DNA of 64,000 nt from an uncultured virus (IMG/VR IMGVR_UViG_3300042450_001219) (taxonomy: Duplodnaviria; Heunggongvirae; Uroviricota; Caudoviricetes). Positions 15,925-37,990 of the stretch are shown piece by piece. The notes under the pieces were generated by a model. It was not told the DNA's origin and did no database searches. It worked only from the letters and a program-made list of their open reading frames with translations. Position 1 is the first letter of the stretch, and the number at the start of each line of letters is the position of its first letter. A program made the translations under genes and the position numbers. The stretch lies in IMG/VR virus record IMGVR_UViG_3300042450_001219; one strand, written 5' to 3'.

Positions 15925-16217
15925 TAATTTGCAGCCTTCCAAGATTCAAGATCTGCTATGTCAGACTCTGTGCCGAAGTTTGCTACTAGATACTCTTCAG
16001 ACTCTTCTAGCTTTAGATTTGCTGTTTCATAAAGCAATCCATCGTAGTTTTGATCTTCTTGGTATTTAATTGTTAGCTTGCCATCTTTTGTTGCTTCCAA
16101 GATTTCTTCGTCTGATAAAGATGGGTTTGCTTCTTTGAATTCTTTAACTAGAAAAAGATCGAACTTGTTCCAGATTGCGTTTACTCTTTCAGAGTCAATT
16201 GTACTAAAAAATCTCAT
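15924..16217 (-). CDS. Hypothetical protein
   Basis: AGGAG RBS; ORF. Confidence 0.6.
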   Translation of the reverse strand: MRFFSTIDSERVNAIWNKFDLFLVKEFKEANPSLSDEEILEATKDGKLTIKYQEDQNYDGLLYETANLKLEESEEYLVANFGTESDIADLESWKAAN

Positions 16218-16296
16218 CGTGTATCTCCTTTAATTTTTAAGAATAAGTATATTATACCCTACATATTCTACAGATTCAATGTCCTAAAAAGTGCGG

Positions 16297-16323
16297 CGAA
16301 AAGTGAGCCGAAAATTAGAGACC
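16297..16323 (+). repeat. Left copy of a 27/28-bp inverted repeat bracketing the plus-strand island (partner at 31547-31574)
   Basis: CGAAAAGTGAGCCGAAAATTAGAGACC versus the reverse complement CGAAAAGTGAAGTCGAAAAGTAGAGACC. Confidence 0.7.
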
Positions 16324-16475
16324 ATAGTCCTGAATTCTTTTTAACATCGCTATATACTCGTCCAATTGCTCCTCAGTAGGCCCTATATTATTTTCTGCTG
16401 GTACACCAGCATATACGATAAAAAGGAGGGCGGAAAGAGGAACATCATAGGCTAGCATAGTAATATTATACTCCA

Positions 16476-16491
16476 TGTTTCACGTGAAACC
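16476..16491. promoter_or_regulatory. parS: parS centromere-like site (ParB box)
   Basis: TGTTTCACGTGAAACC: perfect 14-bp GTTTCACGTGAAAC palindrome, 15/16 to TGTTTCACGTGAAACA. Confidence 0.75.
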
Positions 16492-16616
16492 AAGTAGATC
16501 TATAAATTAAAAAAAAGAAATAGTACTATAACGCCAAAGCATACAAGAAGGAATTTAGCCTTCTTAGTTTTTGGCCATTCATCTGGCACTCTTACATTAT
16601 CCATATTTCCTCCAAG

Positions 16617-16691
16617 TAGGCCTATTGGGATTTGAACCCAAAGTCGATTGCATATAAGACAATTGCTTTAACCAGGTTAAGCTATAGGCCC
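16617..16691 (-). tRNA. tRNA-Ile(UAU)
   Basis: Cloverleaf with GGGCCTA/TAGGCCT acceptor, ATTGT-CTTATAT-GCAAT anticodon arm and GTTCAAATCC T-loop. Confidence 0.85.
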
Positions 16692-17280
16692 TTATATTAG
16701 CCTATTATCTGATATATTATACCAAGGATAAAAGTCATTGCAGTTACTATGGCTATAGCCAAAAGAAGTTTCACTGTTCTATCCCCGTTTTTTTAAAAAT
16801 TGAATCTAGGACTTCATCCATAGAATCATCTATCGTTCTAGTATGTTGTCTTGAACAGTTTCCACATTCTCTACACATATCTATCACCTATTTGTCTTAT
16901 GTTCTTTATCTTGTTTTATAGATTTTATCTGGGTATATTAGATTTTAGGAAAGCCCCCCTACCCCCCAAATTTTTTCTTTTTGGAAAGATAGAGAAAGCA
17001 ATTCCTGGAACATATATCCACAGATGTTATCTGGTACATATTGAGTTTCAGGGTAAGCCCCCCACAAAGCAAACTAAGTGTAGCATTTTACTTTTACCAA
17101 AGTCAATAGCTTATATAACAGCTATGTTGATCAAGTAGTATCTTACCATATCCCCCGCCATTTATTCTAGTTGACTGCTTTTTCAGATTTAAGAAAATGT
17201 TAATATATTTTTTACATGTATGATACACAATTTAGGCAAAACGGACATTTCGGATAGTGCGCCCATAATGAATGGTCATT

Positions 17281-17321
17281 TGTGACTCATCTCACACGAT
17301 TTTTTTGTGATACACCTCACA
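17281..17321. promoter_or_regulatory. Two perfect CRP/GlxR-type boxes
   Basis: TGTGA-N6-TCACA at 17281-17296 and 17306-17321. Confidence 0.7.
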
Positions 17322-17414
17322 ATGTCCGAATTATACGCATTTTGGATTAGACATTTGTCAGACCCCCATGCTATGCTTAAGGTATAACAAAAACAAACGA
17401 AAGGTAATCATCTA

Positions 17415-17659
17415 ATGAATACACTAGAACGAATTAGAAAAGAACAACAAGAACGCTATGCGATACAGCGTGAAAAGGATAAGGCTAAAATAGAGGCTAT
17501 GTTTTCTAATAACCCTCGCCCTTTAAATAACGCCTACCTACTAGCGAAAGAGGAAAACTAATGAGCAACACAGTATTTGTTAGCACTTGGTTTTGCGACA
17601 TCTGCCAGATAGAAACAGGCGAGGACATCGCAGGCTCTATCTGGTGCGAGTGTGACTAG
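17415..17659 (+). CDS. Two tiny coupled early genes (17415-17561, 48 aa; 17561-17659, 32 aa with CxxC/CxC)
   Basis: GAAAGG RBS, TAATG overlap, directly downstream of the promoter. Confidence 0.6.
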
Positions 17660-17747
17660 TATCACACGACACACCCTAGCAACCTCCCCAATTTGTCAGA
17701 CCCCCATGCTACACTTACAACATAACAACAACGAAAGGTCAGAATAA

Positions 17748-18511
17748 ATGACACTAGATGAATACAAGCAAATGGTAGAGGCGCAACGCCTTGCCTCCCT
17801 AGCAATAGCCCTAGAGGCTTTGCGTAAGTCCGATACAATCGCTAAGGAGATGAATAAATAATGTCATACGCATACTCATACGAAACTAATAGCGTATCTA
17901 AATGGGATACTATCCAAGCAGATGTCGCAGACGCATACGCATACCTTGATGAGGTAGATGAGGAACAACCTCCACTAGATGAGTTTAATGATGAAGATAC
18001 AGACGAACTAGCAAAACTATACGCACTAACATGGGAGAACTAATAATGATAATTACTTACACACTTTGGCAAGGTAGCCAATTACTAAGCGTTAATAACA
18101 AGGCTACTAGCGCAGATGAACTGCTAACAGTAATGACCGAACTAAATAAACTAGGTAAGGGTTTCACTTACAACATTAGAGAAGTAGAGGTAAATAAGTA
18201 ATGACTATCGAACTAAATGAATACGGCTTTATGCTTGACATGGGTGATTTTATTTACTTATCCCTATCATGGGCTTTCCTTATCTTGTCCTCCGTTGTTT
18301 TTATCGGTTATAAGATTTATAAGAGAGTAAAGAATAATCGAACACTAGGCAATTGCTTGCCTACTAATACTAATGATACATGGGGAGAGTAATGAATAGA
18401 CTACTTACTACACTAGTCCAATTAGGTATTGGTATTCCCGCCCTAATTATGCTCCGCCTTGTATGGCGTGAGATCGTAGCGGATTACCGAGAGTGGGCTA
18501 ACTCACACTAG
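17748..18511 (+). CDS. Operon of five tiny early genes (17748-17861, 17861-18043, 18046-18201, 18201-18392, 18392-18511)
   Basis: Consecutive ORFs with RBSs and TAATG overlaps; the last two have hydrophobic segments. Confidence 0.6.
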
Positions 18512-18517
18512 CCTAAC

Positions 18518-18714
18518 GGCGTGTCGGCTTGACATTGTCAAGCTGGCCCGCAAGTACTTGCGGGAGTTATCCACAGGGTTACGGGGGTTATCCACAACCC
18601 CCAGGTTTTGCGACACGCCCGAGATTTTGTGATTACTATCACATAGGCTGAGCGTCTCATTATTTGGAATTACTGGCTAGTAGGTAGATAAATGTCAGAC
18701 CCCCGTGGTAAAAT
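18518..18714 (+). repeat. Composite intergenic cassette copy 1 (GGCGTGTCG, hairpin, 2x DnaA box, CGACACGCC, CRP box, promoter)
   Basis: TTATCCACA at 18567 and 18588; TGTGA-N6-TCACA at 18628-18643. Confidence 0.85.
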
Positions 18715-18736
18715 ACTACCATAACGAAAAAGAAAG

Positions 18737-19516
18737 GTGGTCACTATGACTACACTAACAAATACACATACACACACTCCACACATGGAGAGCGTATCTA
18801 CTACCTATGGCATGGGTGTAGATGTCGAATACACTTTCTGCGAAACATGCGAGCAGAACATAGATAGAGTCTATTTCTATGATGACTATGACCGCTTACC
18901 ATTTTATTCCGATTGGAGTTTAACTAAATGAAAACTAATTTTGAGGTAACGCAAGAAATAACAACTCTTGCTAAAAAGCACTATGGCGAAATGGATTTAG
19001 CCTTTAAGTGGGGTTGCGCTCAAGCGTTACTAAGCACTAAGCAATTAGAGATTATTCTAAACATACTAAAAGATAAGGAAACTAACTAAATGGCTGTATT
19101 TAATTTTGATTTATCCGTTACTGTTGAGGCAGATGATTTTGAGTCTGCCTTATCATGGTTAAAGGTTGTTCCATTAGAGCGACTTGATTTTATTGTTGTT
19201 GATTATACCGAATTGGAGTTAAGCGAATGAAATCAGATTTCGAAAAAGATTTAGAAATTAAAGAAAGCTTTATTGATTTACTAAATGATGTTTACCCTAC
19301 TGTAAAAATTGGTTACTCTACTTTTACTCCCGCCGAAATTTTGGAATGTTGCGACCCAATCGCTTTTTCAATCGGACTAATTGAACATGAAGATTATTTA
19401 GCAGAAATGGAAAACGAATAATGGATTTTTTTGGATTTGAAAAAGCAATTGAAATTGATCATTTAACAGATGAGCAAATTCTAAAGCTTGAAGAAATTTT
19501 TAAAGATTTCGAATAA
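18737..19516 (+). CDS. Cluster of about five small early genes (including 18737/18746-18931 and 19227-19421)
   Basis: Consecutive short ORFs with RBSs after the promoter at 18693. Confidence 0.55.
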
Positions 19517-19521
19517 ACAGC

Positions 19522-19714
19522 GGCGTGTCGACTTGACAAAAGTTGATGCGCCCGCAAAAGAGCGGGGTTATCCACAGGGTTACGGGGGTTATCCACAACC
19601 CCTGGAATTTGCGACACGCCCGAGATTTTGTGATTTTTATCACACGACTTGAGCGTCTCAAAATGTGGAATTACTCGCCAGTAATGTGAAAATGTCAGTG
19701 GCATAGGCTATAAT
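19522..19714 (+). repeat. Composite intergenic cassette copy 2
   Basis: TTATCCACA at 19568 and 19589; CGACACGCC at 19612; CRP box 19629-19644. Confidence 0.85.
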
Positions 19715-19746
19715 TGCCAGTATCAACAAACGAAAGGTGACAACTC

Positions 19747-19956
19747 ATGTCAGCAAAAGCATACACTATCGAAAGCCTCTTAGAGGGAAAACACTATCGC
19801 TCACACTCTCGCCATGACGAGGGAACTATCGTATACGCAACAAAGCGTGACGCAATTTGGTACGGAGAAAACCTAGAGGCTTACGCTATCGAGGTTCGCC
19901 CAACCCGTGGGATCAAAAACTTTTGGGCAACCATTGCGGTTAGGGTATCTGACTAA
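19747..19956 (+). CDS. Hypothetical early protein
   Basis: GAAAGG RBS after the promoter. Confidence 0.65.
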   Translation: MSAKAYTIESLLEGKHYRSHSRHDEGTIVYATKRDAIWYGENLEAYAIEVRPTRGIKNFWATIAVRVSD

Positions 19957-20312
19957 TTTGTCAGTGCTATCCGCTATAATTACAGAATAAACAAACGAAA
20001 GGAAAACTATGTTAAACATAATCGACAAAACCGATTTCTATGAAATCGCAGACGAGCAACATTTTTGTTGTGATGAAAGTCAATTTAAGTATTACTGTAT
20101 CGAACACCTAGAATTTATGGGTTGCTACTTTTGCGGATTTGACTATGACAAAGATTGCGAGGAACAACACTAATGATTAACTCAGTATTAACAATAGATT
20201 GCCAAGATTGCTTAGGTCATGGCGTAATCTTTTTTGGTGATGATAATGATTTTGATTGCGAGCCTTGCGATTGTCAAGATGGCTCTTTATTTAAGAACGG
20301 GGAAAATGACTA

Positions 20313-20707
20313 ATGTACCAAATAACAATTTCCTACGATAGCAAGCCTATCCATTGGAATAAAAACTATGATGACGCTTTAGAAGCGTTCACCGCATTTC
20401 TTTCATTTACCGATTGGGGATTTGCTAACGAATACTCAACTGTAAATTTAATGACGCCAACTGGCAAGATGTACACAAAAACATTTTATCGTGAAGGTCG
20501 AAAGGTCGTAACAAAATGATGACAAGAAAAGATTATGTCGCAGTAGCAGAAATTTTAAACTTTGCTAGTGATAAGGCGCACCCTGCTTTATTTTCTAAAA
20601 TTGTAAATGATTTCGCAGTTATGTTCGCAAAAGATAATGAGCGATTTGATGTAAACCGATTTCATAAAGCGTGTGGATACCATGTCACAAAATTCACTTC
20701 GAGATAA
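20313..20707 (+). CDS. Two small hypothetical early proteins (20313-20519, 20516-20707)
   Basis: Coupled ORFs; the second has an MTRKDY...NERFDxxRFxxAC phage motif. Confidence 0.65.
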
Positions 20708-20821
20708 AGTTAAACGCATACAGGAATTGCGTCGCAGTAATGCGGCGCAACCTGTACGCAATAAGAAAAAATATTTTAGAAAAATAAAACATAAAAATAA
20801 ATTTGATCAATGACGCTGCCC

Positions 20822-20957
20822 GCCCGTAAAGCTGCGGGGTTATCCACAGGGTTACGGGCGTTATCCACAACCCCCTGGAATTTGTGAGATTAATCACAAA
20901 ATAAATTAGATAAAGCTTGGGCGTGTTGAGCAATTTGTCAGTGGCATAGGCTATAAT
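20822..20957 (+). repeat. Composite intergenic cassette copy 3
   Basis: TTATCCACA at 20840 and 20861; CRP box 20883-20898; promoter at 20936. Confidence 0.85.
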
Positions 20958-20986
20958 ACTCTTATACCAACAACGAAAGGCAACAA

Positions 20987-21453
20987 ATGAGAATAGAACA
21001 CAACCTGAAGTTCGTAACAGAGTTTAAGGACGGCCATCCAGTAACTAAGCAAATAGAAATGCTTGATGAGGATACTCGTATCTTTATGCTAGAGTCAATG
21101 CTAAAAGATTTAGTCGGTAGCCGACTACAACCAATTCTTGATGAGATAAATGCTAATGGCTCATACGCAATTCTTAAGGTGGCAGAATAATGGGATACAA
21201 TACAGCATTAGATTTAACTGAATTAGATTTAGAGGTAGCACTAGGTTATCACTTACAGGGTAATCATTACCCGCCCGTCCCACTTTCTATGGTACAGCCT
21301 TGTATCGAGGCTATTGATGCTTACTATGATGAGGATTATAATAAGTTGATCGAAATGCCTGAAGGCGTATCTTATAAGGGTGACTCTCATGCGCCAGCGT
21401 GGGCTATTATCGAACAGCACCACTTAGACGCTTGGCTACCTGAAAGTGACTAA
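20987..21453 (+). CDS. Two small hypothetical early proteins (20987-21190, 21190-21453)
   Basis: RBS and TAATG coupling. Confidence 0.65.
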
Positions 21454-21550
21454 GGTCACACAATAACTTTCTCAAATAATGAGATAGGGCTAGACTAATG
21501 TCAGACCCCAATGCTATAATTACCAACCTAACAAAGAAAAGAGGCAATAA

Positions 21551-21733
21551 ATGACAATCAACGACAAGTTGTATCAGGTAGGCGATTTATTCACTACCCT
21601 TAAGTCAAAGAAAACAGGTGTGATTAAAGAAATCCACCCACAAACATCTGGCTCGGTGCGTGTGCTATTGGAAATGCCAAACAAGGAAACTCGTTGGACT
21701 TCCGTATCCGCTCAAACACTACTAGGCGTATAA
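21551..21733 (+). CDS. Small hypothetical protein (SH3/KOW-like)
   Basis: YQVGDLF...GVIKEI pattern; has its own promoter. Confidence 0.6.
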   Translation: MTINDKLYQVGDLFTTLKSKKTGVIKEIHPQTSGSVRVLLEMPNKETRWTSVSAQTLLGV

Positions 21734-21819
21734 TCTAAAGGCAGGGGGGTCGCAGAAATGTCAGACCTCCCTGCTATAATTACTTCATCAACCCAACCCA
21801 CAACGAAAGAAGGAAACAA

Positions 21820-22242
21820 ATGGCTAGAGGAAAAGCAATCTCGGTGAAAATCCCAACTCAGCGAGTAATCAAGGCTTTGGAAACAAAGTTGGCACAACTA
21901 AATAAAGACTTCGCATCACAAGAAGCAAACGAAGCAAAGTATAACAAGCAGGTAGAAGCGTGGAAAAAGGAAATTGGAAAGTGGGCTATTGCTAACTTCT
22001 CAAAGGCTGAAAACCTACGCACAAACTATCGCAACTGGAACAACACTCTCAATGTTGATTTTGACATCATCACAAAGGAAGGAAACTTCCCTGCTGAACC
22101 TGAGAAGGACTACGAAGTAATCCACCGCCACTCATACAATGAGATGAAAGAGGAAATGGAAAACGCAATTCGTATTCTTAAAATGACAGATGAGGAAGTT
22201 GTTAATACCAGCACTTACAATGCGGTTGCTCGTTATCTGTAA
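21820..22242 (+). CDS. Hypothetical early protein
   Basis: Own promoter and RBS. Confidence 0.75.
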   Translation: MARGKAISVKIPTQRVIKALETKLAQLNKDFASQEANEAKYNKQVEAWKKEIGKWAIANFSKAENLRTNYRNWNNTLNVDFDIITKEGNFPAEPEKDYEVIHRHSYNEMKEEMENAIRILKMTDEEVVNTSTYNAVARYL

Positions 22243-22251
22243 ATAATCCAA

Positions 22252-22278
22252 CGACCTGAGTATGTCGCCAAACTGCTC
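22252..22278 (+). ncRNA. Candidate mini H-type pseudoknot RNA motif, copy 1
   Basis: CGAC-CTGAGTAT-GTCG-CC-AAACTGCTC; loop GAGTA can pair with TGCTC. Confidence 0.55.
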
Positions 22279-22313
22279 TCCCTTTTGGGACAACTACTAA
22301 CAAAGGCAACAAA

Positions 22314-22568
22314 ATGAAAAATCGTTTCAGAGTAGAAATCTATGATGAGAACAAGTTAAATGATGTAACAATTTATTCAGAGCAAGGCGTTGATAAGGAA
22401 TACTTAACTGAATTAGCATTCTCTAATCGCCGTAACTTTTTTGGTGATGTTCGTGCTTATGTGTATGATACATTGAAGAAGACTAAGACAACTGCTCTTT
22501 ATCTTCCCGCCGAAGTTATTAACTTCAATCGAAAGAATCAATTAACCAGGGATGAGTTAGGTCTGTAA
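22314..22568 (+). CDS. Hypothetical early protein
   Basis: RBS; ORF. Confidence 0.65.
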   Translation: MKNRFRVEIYDENKLNDVTIYSEQGVDKEYLTELAFSNRRNFFGDVRAYVYDTLKKTKTTALYLPAEVINFNRKNQLTRDELGL

Positions 22569-22600
22569 AGATCTAACACTAGCTGCATATCCTGCAGCTG

Positions 22601-22737
22601 GCCCGTAAAGGTAAGGGGTTATCCACAGGGTTACGACTGCCTGTGGATATCCCTGGAATTTTGTGAGATTAATCACATGGATCAATTCGGACATATTGTA
22701 TCTAATCCTAGACAATGTCAGTGGCACCTGTTATACT
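22601..22737 (+). repeat. Composite intergenic cassette copy 4 (second DnaA box inverted)
   Basis: TTATCCACA at 22619; TGTGGATAT at 22642; CRP box 22662-22677; promoter at 22716. Confidence 0.8.
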
Positions 22738-22768
22738 TATGACTAATCAAACGAAAGGTAAAAAATAT

Positions 22769-23776
22769 ATGGCTCACAATCTAGAAATGGAAAACGGCGA
22801 AGTTGCTTTCGCTCTCCGTGGCGCACCTGCTTGGCACAACCTAGCAAATCGCATCTTCACAAAAGATGAAGAAGTTACTACCGCCCTAATGCTTGAAGAA
22901 GCAAAGTTGGCAAATTGGAATGTTCGTCTATCTCCAATCACTGAGCACATTCCAGAATCTTGGAATGATGTCTCTACCGCATCTCTTGTCATTCGTGACA
23001 ATCCATTCAATAAGGGAACTGATGTTCTTGCCACTGTTGGCAAGCGTTACAAGCCTGTACAGAATGAAGAATTATTCGCATTCGCTGATGCTATTCATGA
23101 TGCGAACGCTGACTGCCGTTGGGAATCTGCTGGCTCATTGAAAAAGGGCAAAGTTGTATTCGGCACTGTTGATATTCCTCGCACAATGGTTCTTGACCCA
23201 CAAGGTGCCAACGATGAAACTAAACTCTATTTAATTGTATGGACATCACATGACGGGTCAGTTGCTGTTCAGGCTGCTGTTACTCCTGTTCGTGTTGTAT
23301 GCCAAAACACATTGAATCTTGCCATGCGTAACGCTAAGCAATCTTTCAAGATTCGTCATACGCAATCTGTTGAAGGTCGCATTCAAGTTGCTCGTGAAAC
23401 TCTTGGGCTTGCTCTTGGTTACTTTGATGAATTCGAGAAGGAAGCGCAAGCACTTTATTCTCAGTCAATTACTGATGCTGAATTCTCAAAGTTAATTCAC
23501 ACAATTTATCCAAAGCCTGCTGATGATGCTGCTAAAGTTGCGCTAACTAAATGGGAGAATAAGGTCGTGCTACTTGATGACCTTTACCATAACTCACCAA
23601 CTAATGCTAACATCAAGGGAACTAAATGGGGTGCGTTTAATGCTCTCACCGAACGCCTTGATTACTATCGCTCAGGTCGTGGAAATTCTGAAACGCTTAT
23701 GGCTGGCGCATCAGGATTTGACCCAGTGCTAACCGCTGAGAAAAACAAAATCAAGAAATTGATTTCTGCTTTCTAA
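22769..23776 (+). CDS. DUF932 family protein (TIGR03299-like phage/plasmid protein)
   Basis: PAWHNL, YKPVQNEE, ESAGSLKKG, SHDGS, TPVRVVCQNTL, GTKWGAFNALTE; start moved to the MAHN codon after the RBS. Confidence 0.88.
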   Translation: MAHNLEMENGEVAFALRGAPAWHNLANRIFTKDEEVTTALMLEEAKLANWNVRLSPITEHIPESWNDVSTASLVIRDNPFNKGTDVLATVGKRYKPVQNEELFAFADAIHDANADCRWESAGSLKKGKVVFGTVDIPRTMVLDPQGANDETKLYLIVWTSHDGSVAVQAAVTPVRVVCQNTLNLAMRNAKQSFKIRHTQSVEGRIQVARETLGLALGYFDEFEKEAQALYSQSITDAEFSKLIHTIYPKPADDAAKVALTKWENKVVLLDDLYHNSPTNANIKGTKWGAFNALTERLDYYRSGRGNSETLMAGASGFDPVLTAEKNKIKKLISAF

Positions 23777-23784
23777 ATAAAAAT

Positions 23785-23811
23785 AATCCTGAGCAAGATT
23801 TAAAACTGCTC
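23785..23811 (+). ncRNA. Candidate mini H-type pseudoknot RNA motif, copy 2
   Basis: AATC-CTGAGCAA-GATT-TA-AAACTGCTC. Confidence 0.55.
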
Positions 23812-23823
23812 ACATTTTTTCTT

Positions 23824-23900
23824 GGTCCATTAGCTCAGTTGGTTAGAGCGCTACCCTGTCACGGTAGAGGCCGACGGTTCAAGTCCGTTATGGATCGCCA
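23824..23900 (+). tRNA. tRNA-Asp(GUC)
   Basis: Cloverleaf, anticodon arm CTACC-CTGTCAC-GGTAG, encoded CCA. Confidence 0.92.
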
Positions 23901-24001
23901 AGCGCCCTCAAAGCTAAGGGGGCAAAAAGTGTGTTACGACTCACATTTAAATTCCCTGGAATCTATTGTAAATGTCAGTGGGGTCCTGTATAATTCTGTA
24001 C

Positions 24002-24676
24002 ATGACCAACGAACTAGTATCAAGCGTGTACACATTTGTCTGTGACCCAGATGAGTGTGATTGTTTAATCCAATTAACATCATCTGATGGATTTGGCTTT
24101 CCATCAGGTGTGACAGAACTCACATGCCCGTGTGGCCGTAAGACCACATTAGTGTCAGTGGAGCATGCTACAATTACATCCTTAAACCAAACGAAAGAAG
24201 GAAGCAATATGGACGGAATGACAGTAGAAAACCTGCCTCTATCAGATGCAGAGAAGTACAACCCTGACCAATTAGTTACATACAAAGTAATCCGTGGTTA
24301 TTCGGATGCTGAATATGCTACAGATAAAGTTCGCAACATTGAATACGAACTGCATAATGGTCGCACAAATTCTAAGGCAGTCTCATCTTTACAGAATAAG
24401 ATTGGCTTAGTTAAAGATATTATTTCAGAGGCATATGCTGATTCAGAAGACCAAGAAACTTTGCAAGCAATTGCAGAAGCGCTTGAGATTGAATTAATTA
24501 GAGAGATTGAATGGTCTGCATCTATTGAAGTTAGCGGAACTATTTCAGTCAACCTACTTGAGGATACTCATTTTGACTTAGATTCAGAAATTGAAGATGC
24601 TCTTTATGCTGATTCACACAATGGCAACATTGAAGTTGTTGACCAAGAAATCTGCAACATTAGGGAGAACTGCTAA
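24002..24676 (+). CDS. Hypothetical protein with an N-terminal Cys-rich domain and a likely internal in-frame start at 24209
   Basis: Leaderless ATG 7 nt after TATAAT (23989-23994); a second promoter (24153) and RBS precede ATG 24209. Confidence 0.65.
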   Translation: MTNELVSSVYTFVCDPDECDCLIQLTSSDGFGFPSGVTELTCPCGRKTTLVSVEHATITSLNQTKEGSNMDGMTVENLPLSDAEKYNPDQLVTYKVIRGYSDAEYATDKVRNIEYELHNGRTNSKAVSSLQNKIGLVKDIISEAYADSEDQETLQAIAEALEIELIREIEWSASIEVSGTISVNLLEDTHFDLDSEIEDALYADSHNGNIEVVDQEICNIRENC

Positions 24677-25241
24677 TGTATTTTGAGTTGACTGCTCCTG
24701 ATAGGCTATCCATGGAGATGGCCTATTGGGATGCACAAATTATTGGGCTGGACCCGCAAGCAATGTCACCGTTGACATTCAACATTGGAACTGGTAGTAT
24801 TGAGAAAGTAAGTAGAATTCGTGATAAGTATAACTTAACTGAATCTTACATATCAGACTACGAAACCACAGGTTATTAAGGAGAAATTATGTCAGACTAT
24901 AAAGATGGTTGGGACGATGGGTATAAGTTTGCCCGTGATGAAATCATGGAAAAGTTATCAGAGATTGATATCAACGACATTGATTCCTGGATCCTTGATC
25001 GTCTTTCTGAGATGATTGAAGGTGGAGCACTATGACAATGGAAGATCTAACAAGATGGATAGCATGTGACCAATGTGGCACAGCCCAAGCAATGTATATG
25101 GTTAAACTAGTAGATGGTGAGCTTTTCTTTTGCGGTCACCACTACAACGCAAGCAAGCGTGGCCTTGACAAGGTCGCATACGAAGTGATAGAATTAAACA
25201 AAACGGAAGAAGCAATCCCTCAACTAGAAACGGCGGAATAA
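24676..25241 (+). CDS. Three small hypothetical genes (24676-24879, about 24889-25035, 25032-25241 with a CxxC...CxHH Zn motif)
   Basis: Coupled ORFs with RBSs. Confidence 0.6.
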
Positions 25242-25242
25242 A

Positions 25243-25608
25243 ATGGGCGACAGAGCAAACTTTGGATTCAGAGATTCCAAGGAGAATGTACTATTTCTAT
25301 ATGGACACTGGGCTGGGCATAATATGCTAGCCAAGTTGGCCAATGCTGTGCAGGCTGCAGAGCCTCGCTGGCAGGATGAATCATATGCAACACGCATTGC
25401 TATATCTAATCTAATTGGAGAAGACTGGACTGAAAAAACAGGCTGGGGTATCTACATTAATCAATTAGGAGATAATGAGCATAAGGTGCCTGTTATTGAT
25501 TGGTCCAATCAAACTTTTACACTGTATGAAGAGGACCTGAGCACGGTAGTGTTTACCTCGTCCCTTGCAGCATTCGTAGATAAATACAGTCGACTAGTTA
25601 TGGTATAA
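25243..25608 (+). CDS. Hypothetical protein (MGDR...LYxHW phage family)
   Basis: ORF; motif typical of actinophage early genes. Confidence 0.7.
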   Translation: MGDRANFGFRDSKENVLFLYGHWAGHNMLAKLANAVQAAEPRWQDESYATRIAISNLIGEDWTEKTGWGIYINQLGDNEHKVPVIDWSNQTFTLYEEDLSTVVFTSSLAAFVDKYSRLVMV

Positions 25609-25730
25609 TTAGACTAGGACTTTGGTCCTGGTTTTAATAGGAAATGAAATGGTGCGTCTATTAGTCTTTAGGGCCAGGCGCTAAGTAAAGCGGTTTATTT
25701 CTTTCGTTGGAAATCAGCAGCCATATTCAT

Positions 25731-25757
25731 AACCCCCAGCATAGCTGGGGGTTTTCT
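25731..25757 (+). terminator. Rho-independent terminator
   Basis: AACCCCCAGC-ATA-GCTGGGGGTT-TTCT. Confidence 0.75.
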
Positions 25758-25935
25758 ATTGCCCGCAAAGACTTGAGGGTAGCATGTTTGTTTTACGACG
25801 TCAAGTTAATTTTCCCAGGAATTTGTGTGATCTTGACCACAAAGCTGAATCATGTGGCATGTATCACATGCCAATTCTATTCCATTTGTCAGTGGTCCAA
25901 TGTATAATTATCACATATCAACGAAAGGATATAAA

Positions 25936-26670
25936 ATGCCAAATTGGGTATTTAATGGATTAACAATTGAAGGTAATCCTGAGCAAGTAAAATCTCTAAT
26001 CAAGCAAATGAATAAGCCATTTGTTTATTCTATTACTGCAGTAGGTGATTTATCATATGATGTCAAGCAGACTAAGTATGTTAATCCTATCTTTGCTTTT
26101 CATAATATATATAACTATAGAGATGCTGGTATTACTGATGAGGTATATCATGGACAACCTCCTCGTTCCACCGATTTTTCTCAGGCAATGAAGTTTGAGA
26201 CCAATGACTGGTACAACTTTAATGTGCGTGAGTGGGGAACCAAGTGGGATGTTGCTGTAGCCGAGGGTAATAAGTATCCTGATACAACTATTGAAGAAGC
26301 AGAAAACGGTGAGAACTATGTAGTTCATTACAACTTTAACACTGCATGGTCACGACCTCTCGGTGCTATCTCTAAACTATCTGCACAATACCCCAATCTA
26401 CTATTTACTTTATCATATGAAGAAGAAACAGGTTGGGGTGGGGAAATGGAATTCCTCCGTGGAGAAGTTATCTCAGAATCAGAATACGATAATATGTGCC
26501 GTGATTGTGATGCAACCGACCAAATGGAATACTGCGACAATGACTGCGGTGAAATCTGTGGCAACTGCAACTGGCTAGGCAATGCTGACCTAGAGGCTGT
26601 AGCAATTTGTCAGACCCATAAGATATACTTAGACACTAAAGTACCCGAATATAGAAAGGCGGAAGCATAA
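25936..26670 (+). CDS. DUF1281/YubB ferredoxin-like domain protein with a Cys-rich C-terminus
   Basis: MPNW start, WYNFNVREWGTKWD, FNTAWSRP, YEEE motifs. Confidence 0.75.
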   Translation: MPNWVFNGLTIEGNPEQVKSLIKQMNKPFVYSITAVGDLSYDVKQTKYVNPIFAFHNIYNYRDAGITDEVYHGQPPRSTDFSQAMKFETNDWYNFNVREWGTKWDVAVAEGNKYPDTTIEEAENGENYVVHYNFNTAWSRPLGAISKLSAQYPNLLFTLSYEEETGWGGEMEFLRGEVISESEYDNMCRDCDATDQMEYCDNDCGEICGNCNWLGNADLEAVAICQTHKIYLDTKVPEYRKAEA

Positions 26671-28479
26671 TGGAAGCATTTACAGATACAGTAGGAGAAC
26701 ATATCCTTGGAGCAATTCAAGTAGATATTGAGCAAGCATTATTTGAAGATTGGAATCAATCTAACTTAGATGAGGGTGAAGCATATGCTGAGTGGAGATT
26801 TATGCAATTTGCTCCTGATAACTTAAAACAATCATACAATGAATACTATGGTTATATTGAAGGAGATGAGTATTGCTTATGATTACCAGCCAAGAACTAA
26901 TTGATTATATTTATGATGACAACTTAATCCATTTTGATGACAGAGACACATCTGATGATTGTGATTGTCACATTCACATAACATTAAACACTATGATTAA
27001 ATATATGGAGGCAATAGAATGCTAGGTTATACATTAGATGATCTTGATGAAATGAGGGCTGTTGTTACTAAGGCTCTATATGATTCTAAAGGACTGCCGA
27101 CTGAAAAAGGATTAGAAAAGACAGCAGACTTTTTAGACGGGCTTTGGGCGGAGGGTTACTTTGACTAAGTCATCACATTTTATGGAGTATCTAAAGATAC
27201 ATAAGATTAGTTTAGAACAAGATTTAGAAGATGCTAGAAATAATATTCCTATTCCTGAAGATGAATACTTCGAATCAGATAGTTATTATATGGGTGCCAT
27301 TGATACTATGGAACATATTTTGTCAGTGGCTACTGATATAATGATTGATAACGAAAGGGTATATTAATGAACATATCATCTAGAGAAGTTACTTATCGTT
27401 CCGCCGTTGAACAAATATTTTTTGAGGACGGGACAGAATTGGTAATCACAATTGGTGCTCCTGCCGAAGGCGGAGGAGATATCGATATTGAATATGATTG
27501 GGTAGAAGGAAAGCCTGATTGGGCAAACAACTTAAATGAATCAACACTAGTGAACTATGAGGTAATATAATGAATCAAGAAGACATTGGGCTCCCTCCGC
27601 ACCTACAGCGTTTGGTTAATGCGGGTGTTAGCGGATTAGATATAATGCACGGAGAACTAAAGAACTTAATGCTAATTGCCGAGCAAGATTTAAAGGACGC
27701 ATTAGCACAGGAGGAGTTGTCTGAAGAGGCAATGGATTCTATGGTCCGAACAGAATGTGAAGGACGACTAGATACTCTAGTCGAACTATATCAACTAACA
27801 TATGAACTATCATTTGCAATTCAATCAAGAATAGATTTGGAGTTTGCTAATGAAGCCTGACGATAAAGATAAACTAAACAAGTGTTTAGAGATTCTAGAC
27901 AGCACTGACCTAGGTCTATCATTAGTTTGGTTGTGGACTTGGTCAACAATTAACAACATATTTGAGGATGAGACCTACAAGCAGAACTGCACCCTAGATG
28001 ACATGTGGGGCCACCTCTGTGAGGCTGTGGAGGCTGGACAAGGGTTCTCCCTGGAATGGGGAGCAGAACAGCACCAAGAAGAAGTTTTAGAATGGATGTT
28101 AAACAGGGACTACATCGTAGACCCTGAAGATGAAGAAGAGGAGGACGAAGATGAAGATGAGTGATAAGTACTTAAACGATCAACTTAGTAAGGCCCAAGC
28201 TTTGCTGTGGGGTGGCAGCGAAACAGAAAACATCGAGGCCCATAACATAATTGCTAAACTAATTAAAGACAAGATAGAACAGGTGGAACTATGACTAAAC
28301 AGTTTAAAGTATATGGCGACATCATTCAGGAATTTTACATTGTAGTAGAAGCCAAGGACAGTGATGAGGCATGGTACAAGGCAGTGGCCACACCTAAGAA
28401 AGAATGGCAAAAGGGTGTCAATCGTAAAGATAAGATAGAACCTTATCAAGTAGAAGAACTAGAACTTACAACTAAATAA
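26670..28479 (+). CDS. Run of small acidic hypothetical genes (26670-26882, 27161-27367, 27367-27570, 27570-27860, about 27850-28164, 28291-28479 and others)
   Basis: Contiguous coupled ORFs. Confidence 0.6.
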
Positions 28480-28625
28480 AGATAGGTTAGGCCGTTATGG
28501 ACAATTCGGACATAACGGTCATAATCTAAGGGCACGGGCAAAAATTTTGCTTTACGGCACCTATTTACAAATCGCCGAAATTCGGATATAATATATATAA
28601 CAAAGATCTAGAAAGGATCAAACAA

Positions 28626-28778
28626 ATGACATCAACACCAACAACAACTCGTGAGTACCTCAAGACCCAGGGAATTTCTGTGGGCAAGCGTGGCCGCTTT
28701 TCAGCTGCAGCTCTAGGCGTTATCAGCAAGGCAGCACAAGAAGGCGTAGTCTTCACAGACAAGAAGAACGTCAAGTAA
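28626..28778 (+). CDS. Stand-alone Lsr2-like DNA-binding domain protein (50 aa)
   Basis: Not in the ORF track. MTSTPTTTREYLKTQGISVGKRGRFSAAALGVI; promoter TTTACA-N17-TATAAT at 28564-28592 and a GAAAGG RBS. Confidence 0.65.
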   Translation: MTSTPTTTREYLKTQGISVGKRGRFSAAALGVISKAAQEGVVFTDKKNVK

Positions 28779-28891
28779 TAAACTAAGTGTGGGGTTCCTC
28801 CTCTCTGTGGGAAAACGGGAAAGGGGAGGAACCTCGCTTCATTTACAAATGTCAGTGGTCAATGGTATAATCAAAACGAAAGGCGGAACTC

Positions 28892-29236
28892 ATGGCTAAA
28901 GCGAACGAATTCAAAGCAGCAGAAAAACTAACAGACTATCTAAACAATGCTAACTTCTCCCCTGCCGTAATGGCAAATGTATTAACAACTGAACATACCT
29001 TATACACCCAAGACAGGCTAATGGAACTAGTTAGATATATTATCCAATACAATTCCCTTAGATTAAAGTCAGAATGGGATAAGGGATATACATCCGAAGG
29101 ATTGCTTCTGGCTGATGCTCTCAACGATATGATTGAGGCAAAATACGGGGCGGTGGATAGAAACCTAACAATTAAATCCCTTGAAGAAACAAGAGTAAGA
29201 GACCCTAAGTACATAATGGATCTAGATTCATTCTAA
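28892..29236 (+). CDS. Hypothetical protein
   Basis: Promoter at 28850 and RBS. Confidence 0.7.
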   Translation: MAKANEFKAAEKLTDYLNNANFSPAVMANVLTTEHTLYTQDRLMELVRYIIQYNSLRLKSEWDKGYTSEGLLLADALNDMIEAKYGAVDRNLTIKSLEETRVRDPKYIMDLDSF

Positions 29237-29632
29237 TATAATTTCCCCTATGGGGCATATGGCTTTCCAGCTATATGTCCCATTTTTGTATGCCCATCTT
29301 ATGGGCCAAATTTCTTCTTTACGACGCATATAAAAATACGCTGGAATTTGTATGCATATTGATCAAAATCTGTCAAAATCTGTATAGAATATCTCATTAT
29401 ATGAGACAAATTATACAGAATTAGACATAATTTTTTGCCATAAATATGGGCCAAAATTGCTCTTTACGAACAAATAAAAAAATTTCCTGGAATATCTATT
29501 GACAAATATTGGCCAATATGCTTTATATGGGCGCTATTGACATTATGACCCATCATATGGTAACGTTCCATTACATAGATATGTTTAGATAGTTATAATG
29601 ATAGTATTTAGACCTAAATTGATAGTATGATT

Positions 29633-29658
29633 CTCCACTTTACTCCACAATACTCCAC
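29633..29658 (-). promoter_or_regulatory. MraZ-type triple direct repeat
   Basis: GTGGAG-TATT-GTGGAG-TAAA-GTGGAG with exact 10-bp period. Confidence 0.55.
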
Positions 29659-29873
29659 TAAATAAGCCTCTAGGAGGCTGATACAAGGGAGATAAAAGGG
29701 AGGGGGGATATAATGGGTAAGGACCCAATTGCTTAAATTTCTACAGCTATTTTGCTGAGCATGTAAGGCATATGAATGGGTCATCATCTTGCTTAACATA
29801 GAGTTGCTTACATTGAGTACATGCTACCTTATATGGCTCTGTATTTACATACTTCTCATAGGATGATTGAAAC

Positions 29874-30926
29874 TTATCCATTGGTTCCCCCGCCCTCACC
29901 TTTTCCAACCAGGTATTCTCTCTTTGATATAAAGTATTTAGATAAATCTATCCCTATCTTATTATAATACTCAGCAATTGATTCCTTGTTTGGTGCTCCC
30001 CAATATCCTAGATATTCCCCAGAAAATATTTCAGTTTGATCAAATTGAGAGTTAACTTCGTTAAATTTTCCAATTTTGCCTCTATCAAGAGTTCTCCAGT
30101 CATCGTCAGACAAAAGCTTACCATCGTTAAACTTGTCTTTAGACCACATTATACACTTCTTGATTGAGAACATTCTGTATCCTCTAGTGCCCGCTCTAAA
30201 AGATAGATTAATTTGATCACCGTTGAAAGGGTTTGCTGGATCATGCATCAGCTCACGAGTAAAACCAAATTTTGTAAACATAAATGAAGCAAATATCAGT
30301 CCGTGCTCAACAAAATCTTGCCCCTCTTGCCAATCCACATGACAACCCTCAATAAAAGCATAATCCATCATTTCTTCGCTTGGTACTTGAGCGTTTGCAT
30401 ACGAGGAAGCATTTATGGAAATAACCTGTATTTTTAATGAACCAAAATTTTCATCAGTTTTAAAATCAAATGGGTCTACCGCTATACCCCTCAAATTGTT
30501 ATGCAGAAATACCTCTTTATTTGGTCCATCTATCCATCTAAGAGGATTTGTAGATATGATAGGCTTATCACAAATCTTTAACAGATCGTTATAATGTTGC
30601 TTTAGGGTAGTGTCCCATCCTTTTTCAAAAACATTGTGTGCGTCAACTTGCAGCAAATACTCATGGTCTCTATAATTTATAATAGAGGCCATCATCCTAC
30701 CAATACCAGTGCCTAGTGGGCGCTCATGCTTTATATCTACATAGGTTAGTCTGGGATGATTAAATATTGGATCTGACAAAAAGTCTTTTTGATCTATAAC
30801 CATATTGGCTATTCCAAAATACAATAGGTCTGGATTGTCTGCGTTAGCTAGTGCGCTTTTGATTGTTTGAACTAAAAACTCTTCTTTGCATGCTGCTATA
30901 GATATATAAATTGTTTCGTTGTTCAT
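29874..30926 (-). CDS. GlcNAc-transferase-like glycosyltransferase (Gnt1/GT60-like)
   Basis: IYISIAA...TIKSA...A.NP..LYFGI, EYLLQVDAH..F..GWD, F.G.QI.LS.RA.T.GY. Confidence 0.7.
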   Translation of the reverse strand: MNNETIYISIAACKEEFLVQTIKSALANADNPDLLYFGIANMVIDQKDFLSDPIFNHPRLTYVDIKHERPLGTGIGRMMASIINYRDHEYLLQVDAHNVFEKGWDTTLKQHYNDLLKICDKPIISTNPLRWIDGPNKEVFLHNNLRGIAVDPFDFKTDENFGSLKIQVISINASSYANAQVPSEEMMDYAFIEGCHVDWQEGQDFVEHGLIFASFMFTKFGFTRELMHDPANPFNGDQINLSFRAGTRGYRMFSIKKCIMWSKDKFNDGKLLSDDDWRTLDRGKIGKFNEVNSQFDQTEIFSGEYLGYWGAPNKESIAEYYNKIGIDLSKYFISKREYLVGKGEGGGTNG

Positions 30927-31150
30927 AGATGAATCTCATTTACTGGCTCTTTCGACCAGTGTATGTAAGATCTAATATAAACTGCTGCATATGCTATTGC
31001 TGAGGCTATAAATCCATATTGCTTTGTTATTAGGGCATATGCTATCCACAAAGCCTCATTAAATAATAAAACCCACCATCCCCATATTGTCTTTCGACCA
31101 ACAAAGAATATGCCTGTTACACCTATAATAGCTAATACCCATGACCACAT
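30923..31150 (-). CDS. Small PnuC-like membrane protein
   Basis: Trp-rich TM segments with a GW...NEALWIAY...QYGF pattern. Confidence 0.55.
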   Translation of the reverse strand: MWSWVLAIIGVTGIFFVGRKTIWGWWVLLFNEALWIAYALITKQYGFIASAIAYAAVYIRSYIHWSKEPVNEIHL

Positions 31151-31295
31151 TATTTGTCACCCCGTTCTTTTTCCCAATACGGGATCCCGTTTTTATCACG
31201 ATCATTCCACTTTTCACCGCTCATATCAATATCTTTAAGCATCTCTTCTATAACTAATTTAAGACGCATTGATCTGTCAGGATCAATATCGCTCA

Positions 31296-31508
31296 TCAGT
31301 ATCCACCAAGACATTCATTACGAGTATGATATAGCCTGATCTTAGTCAATATCTTTTTAGTTGGAGCGTTTAATGGCTCTTGGCATGCACCGCATTCCAT
31401 ATCCCATTCACCGCTAAAGAAGTCATATCTAGCACCATATTTTTGTTTTGCGTATTTTGCTATACGAAAAGCAGTAAATGGATCAGGTATCTCTAAACTC
31501 TGCAACAT
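31296..31508 (-). CDS. Hypothetical protein (CxxC), leaderless
   Basis: TTGTCA-N17-TATACT ends 6 nt before the ATG. Confidence 0.6.
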   Translation of the reverse strand: MLQSLEIPDPFTAFRIAKYAKQKYGARYDFFSGEWDMECGACQEPLNAPTKKILTKIRLYHTRNECLGGY

Positions 31509-31546
31509 GTATTTAGTATATCATTTATGTCAGGTACTGACAAGGG

Positions 31547-31574
31547 GGTCTCTACTTTTCGACTTCACTTTTCG
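31547..31574 (-). repeat. Right copy of the inverted repeat bracketing the island
   Basis: See 16297-16323. Confidence 0.7.
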
Positions 31575-33007: not shown

Positions 33008-33808
33008 CTAAATGTTGTCAATAGTATTATTGTTATTAAAACTTATTAGCTTTTCTTCCATATTTTGGTAAGGCTCTCCAAGAGCTGAAGTTATTCCTGT
33101 TCCAGTATGCATAAACAAAAATATATAAGTTTTGTTTCCAGAAATCACTTCACTAACTTCATGAGAAACCAAGCATGGAAGAAAAACTATGCTCCCAGCT
33201 GAAGGCTTTATTGAATATCCTAGCTGATCAAACACTAGTTCTCCGCCTTCGTAGTCATCATTTAAATATATGAGAGACGTCCAGTCCATCGAATTTTTTG
33301 GGTTTAAAATGTTTCTGTCTATGTGTGGCCCCATGAAACCACCAATTCTATACTTTCTAATACAGTAGTTTCTGGTTATGTGATGCGGTAGATCATTGTT
33401 TGTCTTTTCTGACCAAATTTTTAAAGCGTTAATATAATCATCTTCTATCATTTTGATAGCTGGCAATGCCAATTGATGAGCTTTGCTTTCTTGAGCATAA
33501 TTAGAAATATCTTTGCGGGGCCAATATTGATTGTCTTCATTATAAGAAAGGTCCCAGTCTAACATCTTAGCAACTCCTGCTAAGGCTCCTTCGTTGTCTG
33601 GAAATATCTGTTCCCATTTTGTCAAATCATTTTCGTCTAAGCTAACTGGATAGCCGTTAATCCATGTGCTCCATGAAGGGAAAACTTTTAAAATTTCAGG
33701 GTTTTGATCATTTGATTCCACAAAATCTAAAAACTCTTTAGATTTAGGAAATGCATTCTCAATGTATATTACGCCACCAGGCATATCGTGAATTATTGGA
33801 GTAGTCAT
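33008..33808 (-). CDS. 2OG-Fe(II) oxygenase, prolyl-4-hydroxylase-like
   Basis: MGPHID, YLNDDYEGGEL, KPSAGS, HEV. Confidence 0.85.
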   Translation of the reverse strand: MTTPIIHDMPGGVIYIENAFPKSKEFLDFVESNDQNPEILKVFPSWSTWINGYPVSLDENDLTKWEQIFPDNEGALAGVAKMLDWDLSYNEDNQYWPRKDISNYAQESKAHQLALPAIKMIEDDYINALKIWSEKTNNDLPHHITRNYCIRKYRIGGFMGPHIDRNILNPKNSMDWTSLIYLNDDYEGGELVFDQLGYSIKPSAGSIVFLPCLVSHEVSEVISGNKTYIFLFMHTGTGITSALGEPYQNMEEKLISFNNNNTIDNI

Positions 33809-33815
33809 GAATTAA

Positions 33816-34004
33816 TTATAGCATTTCTTTGTTTATTGCGTCTTTAATCACTGGATCAAGTCTGTCCCAATGTCCTTTTTCGCTTCCCTGGTAAACCTGA
33901 CCAGTTTCTCTATCCACAAGAAGCCACTTTTCTGGACACTTAGTTTTAACAGTTAAATTGACAGATTTTAAAATTGTTTTAAACTTAAATTGTTTACGCA
34001 ACAC
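33816..34004 (-). CDS. Hypothetical protein, paralog of 54944-55210
   Basis: TKCPEKWLLVDRETGQVY. Confidence 0.55.
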   Translation of the reverse strand: MLRKQFKFKTILKSVNLTVKTKCPEKWLLVDRETGQVYQGSEKGHWDRLDPVIKDAINKEML

Positions 34005-34301: not shown

Positions 34302-34501
34302 TTGTTATTACTCCTCAAAAGATTCTTGTGTTTCCCAAAAGCTATCCTTTTTGAACTGCTCTTGTATTCTTTTTGCATCTAAAATTACAGACATTTCTCT
34401 ATAAAGTTTTATTCCCATGTAAACACACACTGCAAATATAGCTGCGGCAAATATAATAAAGTTATTCATATCTATATTATACAGCACTATAAGTAAAGCT
34501 G

Positions 34502-37989: not shown

Positions 37990-37990
37990 A

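Follow-up and report, generated by a model that had tools for sequence, protein, structure and literature searches.

A 64,000-nucleotide stretch of DNA from an uncultured tailed phage (IMG/VR record IMGVR_UViG_3300042450_001219), referred to at its full length as the window, carries on its plus strand a block of small genes that spans 17.3-29.7 kb, or about 12 kb, and whose short operons begin at a repeated promoter in which a TGTCAG box takes the place of the -35 element. The explanation that we favour, with modest confidence, is that these hybrid promoters would be read by the host activator PafBC, tuned by upstream sites for other host regulators, and damped in their output by a small RNA. 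The evidence lies in the motifs themselves, in how they are arranged, conserved and confined to the block, and in the match of the promoters to those of bacterial recA genes. It is the geometry of the sequence that argues for a block wired to host regulators, which is the best reading of this region.

17415..29236, plus strand: block of about 38 small genes (31-335 amino acids) in at least 15 short operons (open reading frame (ORF) and ribosome-binding site calls)
17356..28871, plus strand: 15 promoters of the form AAA-TGTCAG-N7-TGn-TAtAAT without a -35 element (pattern scan), with TGTCAG starting at 17356, 17694, 18693, 19693, 19959, 20936, 21499, 21759, 22716, 23973, 24153, 25887, 26608, 27321 and 28850
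4439-4460 and 4571-4592, plus strand: two identical matches to the promoter pattern outside the block, 132 bp apart, inside a minus-strand gene for a tail-fibre-like protein of 1,119 amino acids
33021-32993 and 34505-34476, minus strand: perfect TTGACA-N17/18-TATAAT promoters outside the block

The pattern TGTCAG-N10-TAnnnT is present 18 times in the window, and 0.71 matches are expected by chance. Expected counts here and below are means over 100 dinucleotide shuffles of the window, none of which reaches the observed counts. For 14 of the 15 block promoters, the predicted transcription start lies 14-34 nucleotides from the start codon. Pairs of -35 and -10 elements of the sigma-70 type are not enriched in the block (54 versus 42.4 +/- 6.2), and two perfect promoters of that type lie outside it; the phage therefore has two promoter classes. 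The matches at 4439 and 4571 were rejected as promoters because they belong to a coding repeat. A match at 46327 on the minus strand, beside whiB, was judged to be due to chance, since 0.71 matches are expected per window and relative G003 has no match near whiB, its sole match outside the block being at 68163.

There are 58 related IMG/VR loci, identified through one block protein (42-100% identity; contigs of up to 116.5 kb), and all 58 carry between 5 and 18 promoter motifs on the same strand, with two loci having a single copy on the opposite strand. In a complete relative of 114,966 bp, one 11-kb block holds 14 of 15 promoter motifs, six of seven DnaA boxes and all eight CRP-type palindromes (both described below). 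The consensus drawn from 539 unique contexts is AAA-TGTCAG-(T/A)(G/C)(G/C)-N4-TGn-TAtAAT, and each of the positions from -13 to -4 relative to TGTCAG holds less than 0.3 bit, which leaves no sign of a -35 element. The N10 spacing is found in 405 of 599 unique TGTCAG contexts, while every other spacing occurs at most six times. The box also emerges when it is not required. Among 606 unique plus-strand sites taken by their extended -10 element alone, the hexamer at -28 to -23 is TGTCAG in 246 cases, followed by TGTCGG (20), AGTCAA (13) and AGTCGA (10), and no hexamer is enriched in the equivalent set from the opposite strand.

The published PafBC motif is tGTCgg(N10)tA(N3)T, with the box at -23 to -28 and no -35 element; its GTC is near-invariant across actinobacteria, and PafBC inserts between sigma region 4 and the DNA (PMC8635444). 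Judged by sequence, the phage promoter class fits this architecture point for point, as an earlier note on the same DNA had proposed. The PafBC-dependent promoters of Mycobacterium and other actinobacteria (the RecA-NDp or recA P1 type) have the same hexamer with a GTC core at -28 to -23, the same 10 nucleotides to TAnnnT, and the same lack of a -35 element. The phage version differs in being viral and in forming an array of about 15 copies before tiny genes of no known function. In addition, the fifth base of its box is mostly A, its TGn extended -10 element is strong, and many copies are preceded by sites of the CRP, DnaA and GACAC types; that PafBC binds these promoters is presumed. Among the literature searched on PafBC, RecA-NDp and phages, largely by title and abstract, there is no description of phage promoters of this type.

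Bacterial recA promoters provide a further comparison. Because the phage RecA has diverged too far for a host RecA to be recognised from it (at most 58% identity to any representative RecA), a DNA pattern was used instead, and metagenome contigs were scanned for TGTCRG-N10-TAnnnT located 88-118 nucleotides before a degenerate (F/Y)GKGS(V/I)M coding motif. There are at least 120 matches, of which 80 loci (L084-L163) were examined. All 80 continue as RecA, and the Walker A motif is present in 69; the other 11 are cut by the contig end or differ by one residue at Walker A. The core motif was itself the criterion of selection, and evidence can therefore come only from the positions that it left free (-3, -2 and +6 to +9). 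At these positions the recA promoters and the phage promoters share their preferences: T or A at +6 (60/71 recA versus 506/539 phage), G or C at +7 (65/71 versus 505/539), G or C at +8 (68/71 versus 516/539), C or T at +9 (67/71 versus 412/539), A at -3 (35/71 versus 309/539) and A at -2 (37/71 versus 374/539). The contigs with recA promoters are mostly 63-74% G+C and the phage DNA is 38% G+C, and yet the flanks are alike. The two sub-types of the phage promoter, TGTCAG-TGG and TGTCAG-ACC(CC), both occur among recA promoters. The TGTCAG form of the box is found in 8 of 14 unique recA promoters on contigs below 60% G+C versus 13 of 57 above. Two of the loci, L107 and L127, have a RecA N-terminus that looks non-actinobacterial when the sequence is judged by eye.

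Upstream of the core promoters are further conserved sites. One of these is a perfect palindrome that equals the CRP consensus TGTGA-N6-TCACA (PMC10187061).

17281, 17306, 17651, 18628, 19629, 20883, 22662 and 24109 (starts), plus strand: eight perfect TGTGA-N6-TCACA palindromes (pattern count)

Only 0.12 copies are expected, and the palindrome is present in all 58 related loci, with 184 unique contexts among relatives. In the window, the palindromes stand 43-75 nucleotides before the TGTCAG of the next promoter. When start-to-start distances are collected from 214 unique palindrome-promoter pairs, 155 fall on a 10-bp ladder with 42 pairs at 43-45 nucleotides, 67 at 53-55, 41 at 63-65 and five at 75, and a further 18 of the 214 pairs are more than 200 nucleotides apart. 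Within the window alone the occupied rungs are 43, 44, 53, 54, 64, 65 and 75 nucleotides. Different cassettes of one genome therefore sit on different rungs, and the phasing cannot be due only to inheritance. A ladder with steps of one helical turn points to control of transcription, because an upstream activator that contacts RNA polymerase requires such phasing, whereas a sponge for DNA-binding proteins would not.

Class I CRP-dependent promoters of E. coli have the same perfect palindrome upstream of the core promoter, at positions that step by about one helical turn. If transcription starts 7 nucleotides after the -10 element, the phage palindromes would be centred near -64.5, -74.5, -84.5 and -95.5. 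The phage sites differ from the class I arrangement in that the core promoter is of the PafBC type, and binding by a protein of the CRP family is presumed.

The palindromes belong to cassettes with a fixed order, as seen when the four large cassettes of the window are aligned and compared with those of relatives: one or two terminator hairpins of the previous operon, one or two DnaA boxes, the palindrome, and often a 9-mer that contains GACAC. Among 541 unique promoters, a perfect palindrome is located within 220 nucleotides upstream of 227, a perfect DnaA box upstream of 86, and both upstream of 83.

18567/18588, 19568/19589 and 20840/20861, plus strand: direct pairs of DnaA boxes, 21 bp apart (TTATCCACA scan)
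22619, plus strand: single DnaA box, facing an inverted copy that matches at 8 of 9 positions (22642-22650)

The DnaA box TTATCCACA, which fits TT(A/T)TNCACA, has seven copies in the window, all on the plus strand between 18567 and 22627, versus 0.70 expected (none of the 100 shuffles reaches seven). It is found in 57 of 58 related loci, where unique contexts include the 21-bp direct pair 24 times and a 23-bp inverted pair 13 times. It is also by far the commonest NNNNNCACA word, with 128 unique contexts on the plus strand and 31 on the minus strand. This use in both orientations is as would be expected for an asymmetric site bound by a monomer, such as a DnaA box.

18518 and 19522 (GGCGTGTCG), 18611 and 19612 (CGACACGCC), all within 18518..19620, no strand assigned: 9-mers that contain GACAC

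The 9-mer GGCGTGTCG is present twice on the plus strand and twice on the minus strand, forming two inverted pairs, versus 0.03 expected. Among relatives, CGACACGCC is located 26-27 nucleotides before TGTCAG in 39 of 58 unique cases, and GGCGTGTCG 16-18 nucleotides before it in 21 of 150. One cassette folds as a multi-branch RNA closed by two 9-mers (z = -4.7). An RNA stem formed by GGCGTGTCG and CGACACGCC was nevertheless rejected as a general explanation, as an inverted partner within 300 nucleotides exists for only 27 of 64 CGACACGCC copies and 26 of 152 GGCGTGTCG copies. We take the 9-mer to be a DNA site because most copies across the family stand alone.

The published WhiA sites are GACAC, read on either strand and located at a variable distance upstream of -35; WhiA acts with WhiB bound to sigma region 4 (PMC10243135). 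The phage 9-mers match this description in their GACAC core, in the use of both orientations and in their variable distance near the -35 position, and WhiB is encoded by the phage itself.

46038..46349, minus strand: gene of the WhiB family, outside the block (Pfam PF02467, 46.8 bits versus a cut-off of 23.6)

The gene is found in all five complete relatives. Its product is a possible partner for the GACAC sites, which we regard as a lead and not as a result. In the WhiA/WhiB dual activation of Streptomyces the same GACAC core lies on either strand, at a variable distance just upstream of the -35 position, and a WhiB protein is likewise at hand, in this case from the phage. The phage arrangement is distinct in that a whole 9-mer (CGACACGCC) is conserved, a -35 element is lacking, and the combination with a -26 box is not known in hosts.

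These results bear out much of what the earlier note had seen. Its motifs are real and far exceed the shuffled expectation; promoters, DnaA boxes and palindromes lie mostly in one block, as it had stated, and they are conserved among the 58 related loci. Its count of seven DnaA boxes stands, but there are eight palindromes and 15 promoters where it had given 7 and 14. The look-alikes of DnaA, CRP and GACAC sites that it listed prove to be conserved elements.

A different kind of element is provided by a candidate small RNA.

25588-25609, plus strand: variant promoter AGTCGA-N10-TATAAT, followed by a candidate small RNA of about 140 nucleotides that extends to 25762

There is no ORF after the variant promoter. 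What follows is a hairpin at the 5' end, then a conserved core, and finally a terminator hairpin together with its T-run (25731-25753). In an alignment of 15 of the 24 available sequences (23 unique relatives plus the window), CTTTCGTTGG (25701-25710) is invariant, and RNAalifold predicts 27 pairs, five of which have compensatory changes. The complement of the invariant segment, AACGAAAG, has 14 copies in the window versus 1.76 expected, and 11 of the 14 are in leaders of promoter-proximal block genes, 10-20 nucleotides before the start codon. The small RNA is therefore likely to pair with the ribosome-binding region of block mRNAs.

The explanation that we favour combines these elements as follows. 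Each short operon would start at a hybrid promoter, in which an extended -10 element for the host housekeeping sigma factor is joined to a wGTCrr box at -28 to -23 that replaces the -35 element. PafBC reads such an architecture by sigma adaptation after binding single-stranded DNA, and single-stranded DNA from incoming or replicating phage genomes would most probably trigger host PafBC and so switch the block on. The upstream cassettes combine a terminator hairpin with one or two DnaA boxes, a GACAC 9-mer and a CRP-type palindrome that lies on the correct side of the helix, and they would tune single promoters through inputs from CRP-family proteins, DnaA, and possibly WhiA/WhiB proteins. Later, the small RNA encoded in the block, being complementary to the shared leader box, would probably damp translation. 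Which proteins bind, when the block is expressed and in which direction each site acts are what we infer from this arrangement. The fixed positions and the phasing before promoters make the sites look like control switches for phage genes and not like a decoy.

The phage itself appears to lack the proteins that would read these sites. In the five complete relatives, neither a WYL domain, nor the C-terminal domain of DnaA, nor the N-terminal domain of ParB was found, and the best match to a CRP-type helix-turn-helix (HTH) domain in complete relatives (HTH_Crp_2) has 13 bits versus a cut-off of 27. This outcome would fit the use of host proteins. The earlier note had offered three options, and its suggestion that the phage uses host proteins to read the state of the host is the one that fits best.

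Several observations weigh against our explanation. The extended -10 element is near consensus and might work without an activator. Palindromes are off-phase, at 48-50 nucleotides, in 24 of the 214 pairs. PafBC and WhiB both contact sigma region 4, and thus the two could not easily be active at one promoter simultaneously. The recA set was picked by the motif itself and many of its rows are related, so that its counts are not independent. That the host possesses pafBC, crp or whiA is a presumption. Finally, most block proteins have no known family, and a phage-encoded reader of any of these boxes is possible.

This last point leads to an alternative that we regard as unlikely but worth weighing, namely that phage factors of unrecognised families read the boxes: an activator like MotA/AsiA or a shut-off repressor at TGTCAG, and other proteins at TTATCCACA, the palindrome and the 9-mer, with the likeness to host sites being due to convergence or coincidence. 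About 35 of the 38 block proteins are without a family and could include such factors. There is also a precedent in the middle promoters of T4, where MotA and AsiA appropriate sigma and a box near -30 replaces the -35 element (PMC8635444), and the related phage NootNoot has similar cassettes with its own TGTCC-N5-GGACA palindromes. However, the box is found at every promoter of the block, including the first, and thus an activator encoded in the block could not start the block. Each of four different boxes coincides with a published consensus for host sites, and the flanks of the -26 box match those of bacterial recA promoters. Moreover, no HTH, WYL or sigma-like match is found among the 137 ORFs of the complete relative, and there is no Pfam match to MotA or AsiA among those ORFs or the block proteins. 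The phage also differs from T4 in that its box equals the site of a host activator rather than a phage-specific one.

It is less probable still that the DnaA-box cassettes, together with an AT-rich stretch and a parS-like site, constitute a DnaA-dependent origin or positioning site, or that the block is a collapsed long terminal repeat with boxes of the T5 type.

20753..20815, no strand assigned: the block's only stretch with at least 86% A+T over 50 bp, ending 24 nucleotides before the third pair of DnaA boxes
16925..17075 (left, once), 29265-29420 and 29410-29570 (right, twice), plus strand: border element of about 95 bp (repeat families D9 and D20)
16476..16491, no strand assigned: parS-like palindrome TGTTTCACGTGAAACC, a single copy 0.8 kb before the block

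The complete relative encodes a DnaE-type polymerase, DnaB, primase, RecA and SSB and no recognised initiator, which leaves room for initiation by DnaA, and an AT-rich run does adjoin one pair of boxes. The same border element, which contains a hairpin, CAAATTTCTTCTTTACG and TTCCTGGAA, is present on either side of the block. For the DnaA boxes, the nearest precedent is the left terminal repeat of T5-like phages, whose non-coding part has eight paired DnaA boxes of unproven function (bioRxiv 10.1101/866236). In this first-step-transfer or injection-stop region, as in the phage block, seven or eight paired consensus boxes are found among repeats and palindromes, in a distinct block of small and presumably first-expressed genes of a siphovirus of about 110-120 kb. 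In T5 the pairs are 3 bp apart and lie in a large untranslated region, whereas the phage pairs are 21-23 bp apart with one pair per promoter cassette; the host phylum also differs, and a long terminal repeat is only a candidate interpretation of the phage block. A terminal repeat is also suggested by Streptomyces phages of cluster BE, in which direct terminal repeats of about 11 kb are described for BE1 (PMC5764925) and a DUF932 gene lies inside the repeat. The DUF932 protein of the block is 50% identical to its cluster BE homologue, which matches two places per BE phage record, one of them in NootNoot at 1.4-2.4 kb from the left end.

Against an origin or a terminal repeat stand the following. 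Only 15 of 58 loci have AT-rich DNA adjoining DnaA boxes, the box pairs extend over 4 kb with each tied to a promoter, DUF932 is the only one of the 38 block proteins in common with the NootNoot repeat region, and GC skew merely tracks gene strand and did not locate an origin. The end repeats recorded in IMG/VR for relatives G003, G005 and G006 do not place physical ends. The parS-like site forms a perfect palindrome over 14 bp (16477-16490) and agrees with the parS consensus 16-mer at 15 of 16 bases, and with at most one mismatch it occurs in 11 of 58 loci and two of five complete relatives. The earlier note was thus right about a perfect palindrome, but the match to parS is incomplete and the site is poorly conserved. 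Its proposal of an oriC mimic is not supported, given cis elements in a fixed order before promoters, the scarce adjacency of AT-rich DNA, and the rarity of the parS-like site.

The first 10,100 nucleotides of NootNoot (L083) also contain an array of small genes, with cassettes that comprise a terminator hairpin, a TGTCC-N5-GGACA palindrome, GGACA repeats and a promoter. In these promoters TGTCCn is located exactly 10 nucleotides before TAGACT, which places GTC at the PafBC position in a cultured relative. The repeat block of Stanwilliamsviridae (cluster BE, of which NootNoot is an example) is thus like the phage block in having a small-gene array behind terminator-operator-promoter cassettes. 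The NootNoot promoters, unlike those of the block, keep a TTGnnn -35 element and TGTCC-N5-GGACA palindromes.

The earlier note had also proposed a decoy, in which replicating phage DNA would stall the host's replication, segregation and division by sequestering DnaA, ParB, CRP, WhiA and MraZ; several high-affinity consensus sites multiplied by the phage copy number, and the failure of profile searches (WYL, DnaA, ParB and CRP) to find phage homologues of the binding proteins, are in its favour, but this is the least supported reading and very improbable, because the sites are few (seven DnaA boxes and one parS-like site), parS is absent from three of five complete relatives, and the sites are ordered and helically phased to phage promoters, a geometry for which a sponge has no need.

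A conserved non-coding region marks the right end of the block.

29237..29700, plus strand: conserved non-coding end region of about 450 bp with hairpins, the terminal one at 29665-29679

Its repeats include three copies of GATAGT and three of ACTCCAC at a 10-bp period (29633-29658), with CTCCAC at 29633, 29643 and 29653, while 16 other single copies of GTGGAG or CTCCAC are scattered over the window. The GTGGAG triplet with a 10-bp period given in the earlier note is therefore real, reads CTCCAC on the plus strand, and is present in exact form in 34 of 59 sources; 13 of the 25 sources without it end less than 1,500 nucleotides after the last promoter. It may resemble the operators of MraZ, in which three direct repeats at a 10-bp period precede a regulated promoter, but it does not stand in front of a gene, and no promoter follows it. 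One relative, with no more than 73% identity in the marker protein, has a near-identical end region (L074 6060-6530). The region might serve as an origin, as a packaging or end site, or as an RNA gene.

The genes of the block reveal little about its function. A Pfam family could be assigned to only three block proteins, and PHROGs yielded only families of unknown function. An Rfam scan at E < 0.2 returned two tRNAs only.

22769-23776, plus strand: DUF932 gene (Pfam)
25032-25241, plus strand: DUF7455 gene (Pfam)
25936-26670, plus strand: gene for a DUF1281_C protein (Pfam)
23824-23900, plus strand: tRNA-Asp(GTC), in the block between the DUF932 gene and the next promoter
16616-16691, minus strand: tRNA-Ile(TAT), just beyond the left border and beside the parS-like site

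The block is probably a separately controlled gene set that serves early in infection or in host takeover. Contigs from four metatranscriptome libraries (four study codes) cover 23-24 of 30 bins of 16000-31500, mostly at 90-95% identity; such contigs show neither strand nor ends, may derive from carried-over DNA, and say nothing through the uncovered bins 29442-30992. They are weak evidence that this block, or that of a relative, is transcribed in lakes.

Outside the block, the minus strand of the window carries genes for tail-fibre-like proteins, ribonucleotide reductase, many 2OG-Fe(II) oxygenases, PstS, Hsp20, AhpC/AhpD, GMP reductase, a CHAP lysin, RuvC and a PD-(D/E)XK nuclease. One auxiliary run on the minus strand (33008-44173) comprises four 2OG-Fe(II) oxygenase or hydroxylase genes and genes for a radical SAM/SPASM enzyme, a ferritin-like protein, a cupin/JmjC protein and a subtilase, and looks like a peptide-modification cluster. 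More than 12 oxygenase genes are present in the complete relative.

A megablast search of the window against a phage collection gave no match. The annotated complete relative (137 ORFs) is a siphovirus with a tape measure protein of 2,826 amino acids; it encodes WhiB in addition to the replication proteins named above, and its portal and DnaE proteins are about 60% and 57% identical, respectively, to those of Streptomyces cluster BE phages. WhiB is used as a marker for actinophages in lakes (PMC6802176, PMC10914622). Because WhiB is encoded and because of the portal and DnaE kinship, the host is very probably an actinobacterium, despite a G+C content of 38%, and on this the earlier note was correct. 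Direct searches for the host gave no organism. A PstS homologue of 52% identity, used against genome contigs, found only matches of 29-38% identity (Acidobacteriota, Lysobacter, Chloroflexia), the PstS homologues carry no organism names, and GMP reductase gave mixed taxa in a protein atlas. The phage family is common in lake metagenomes: sequencing runs that contain its DNA are labelled lake water, and at least half of the sampled sequence words are present in 18 DNA runs under 18 study codes. The phage is a siphovirus of about 115 kb and is kin to Streptomyces cluster BE phages; as part of the favoured explanation, we view it as lytic and as infecting freshwater actinobacteria.

Perhaps these abundant lake actinophages copied a promoter type of the host stress regulon to start takeover genes through the single-stranded DNA alarm (PafBC), gate individual operons by cyclic AMP-CRP, DnaA and WhiA-WhiB, and close the programme with an anti-leader RNA. 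This fuller scenario is plausible, although we hold it only tentatively. If it is true, exploitation of sigma adaptation would be known from a virus for the first time, and the promoter array would have an unusually large number of inputs. If host PafBC reads these promoters, then single-stranded DNA, a signal of the defence type, would switch the phage on, which would link the DNA-damage response with infection, and more than 500 natural variants of the -26 element would become available for the study of sigma adaptation. The parallel with T5 raises the possibility that phages have repeatedly placed DnaA boxes in the DNA that they express first. That abundant freshwater phages read the energy and replication state of their hosts is suggested by the phasing of the CRP-type sites and the pairing of the DnaA boxes.

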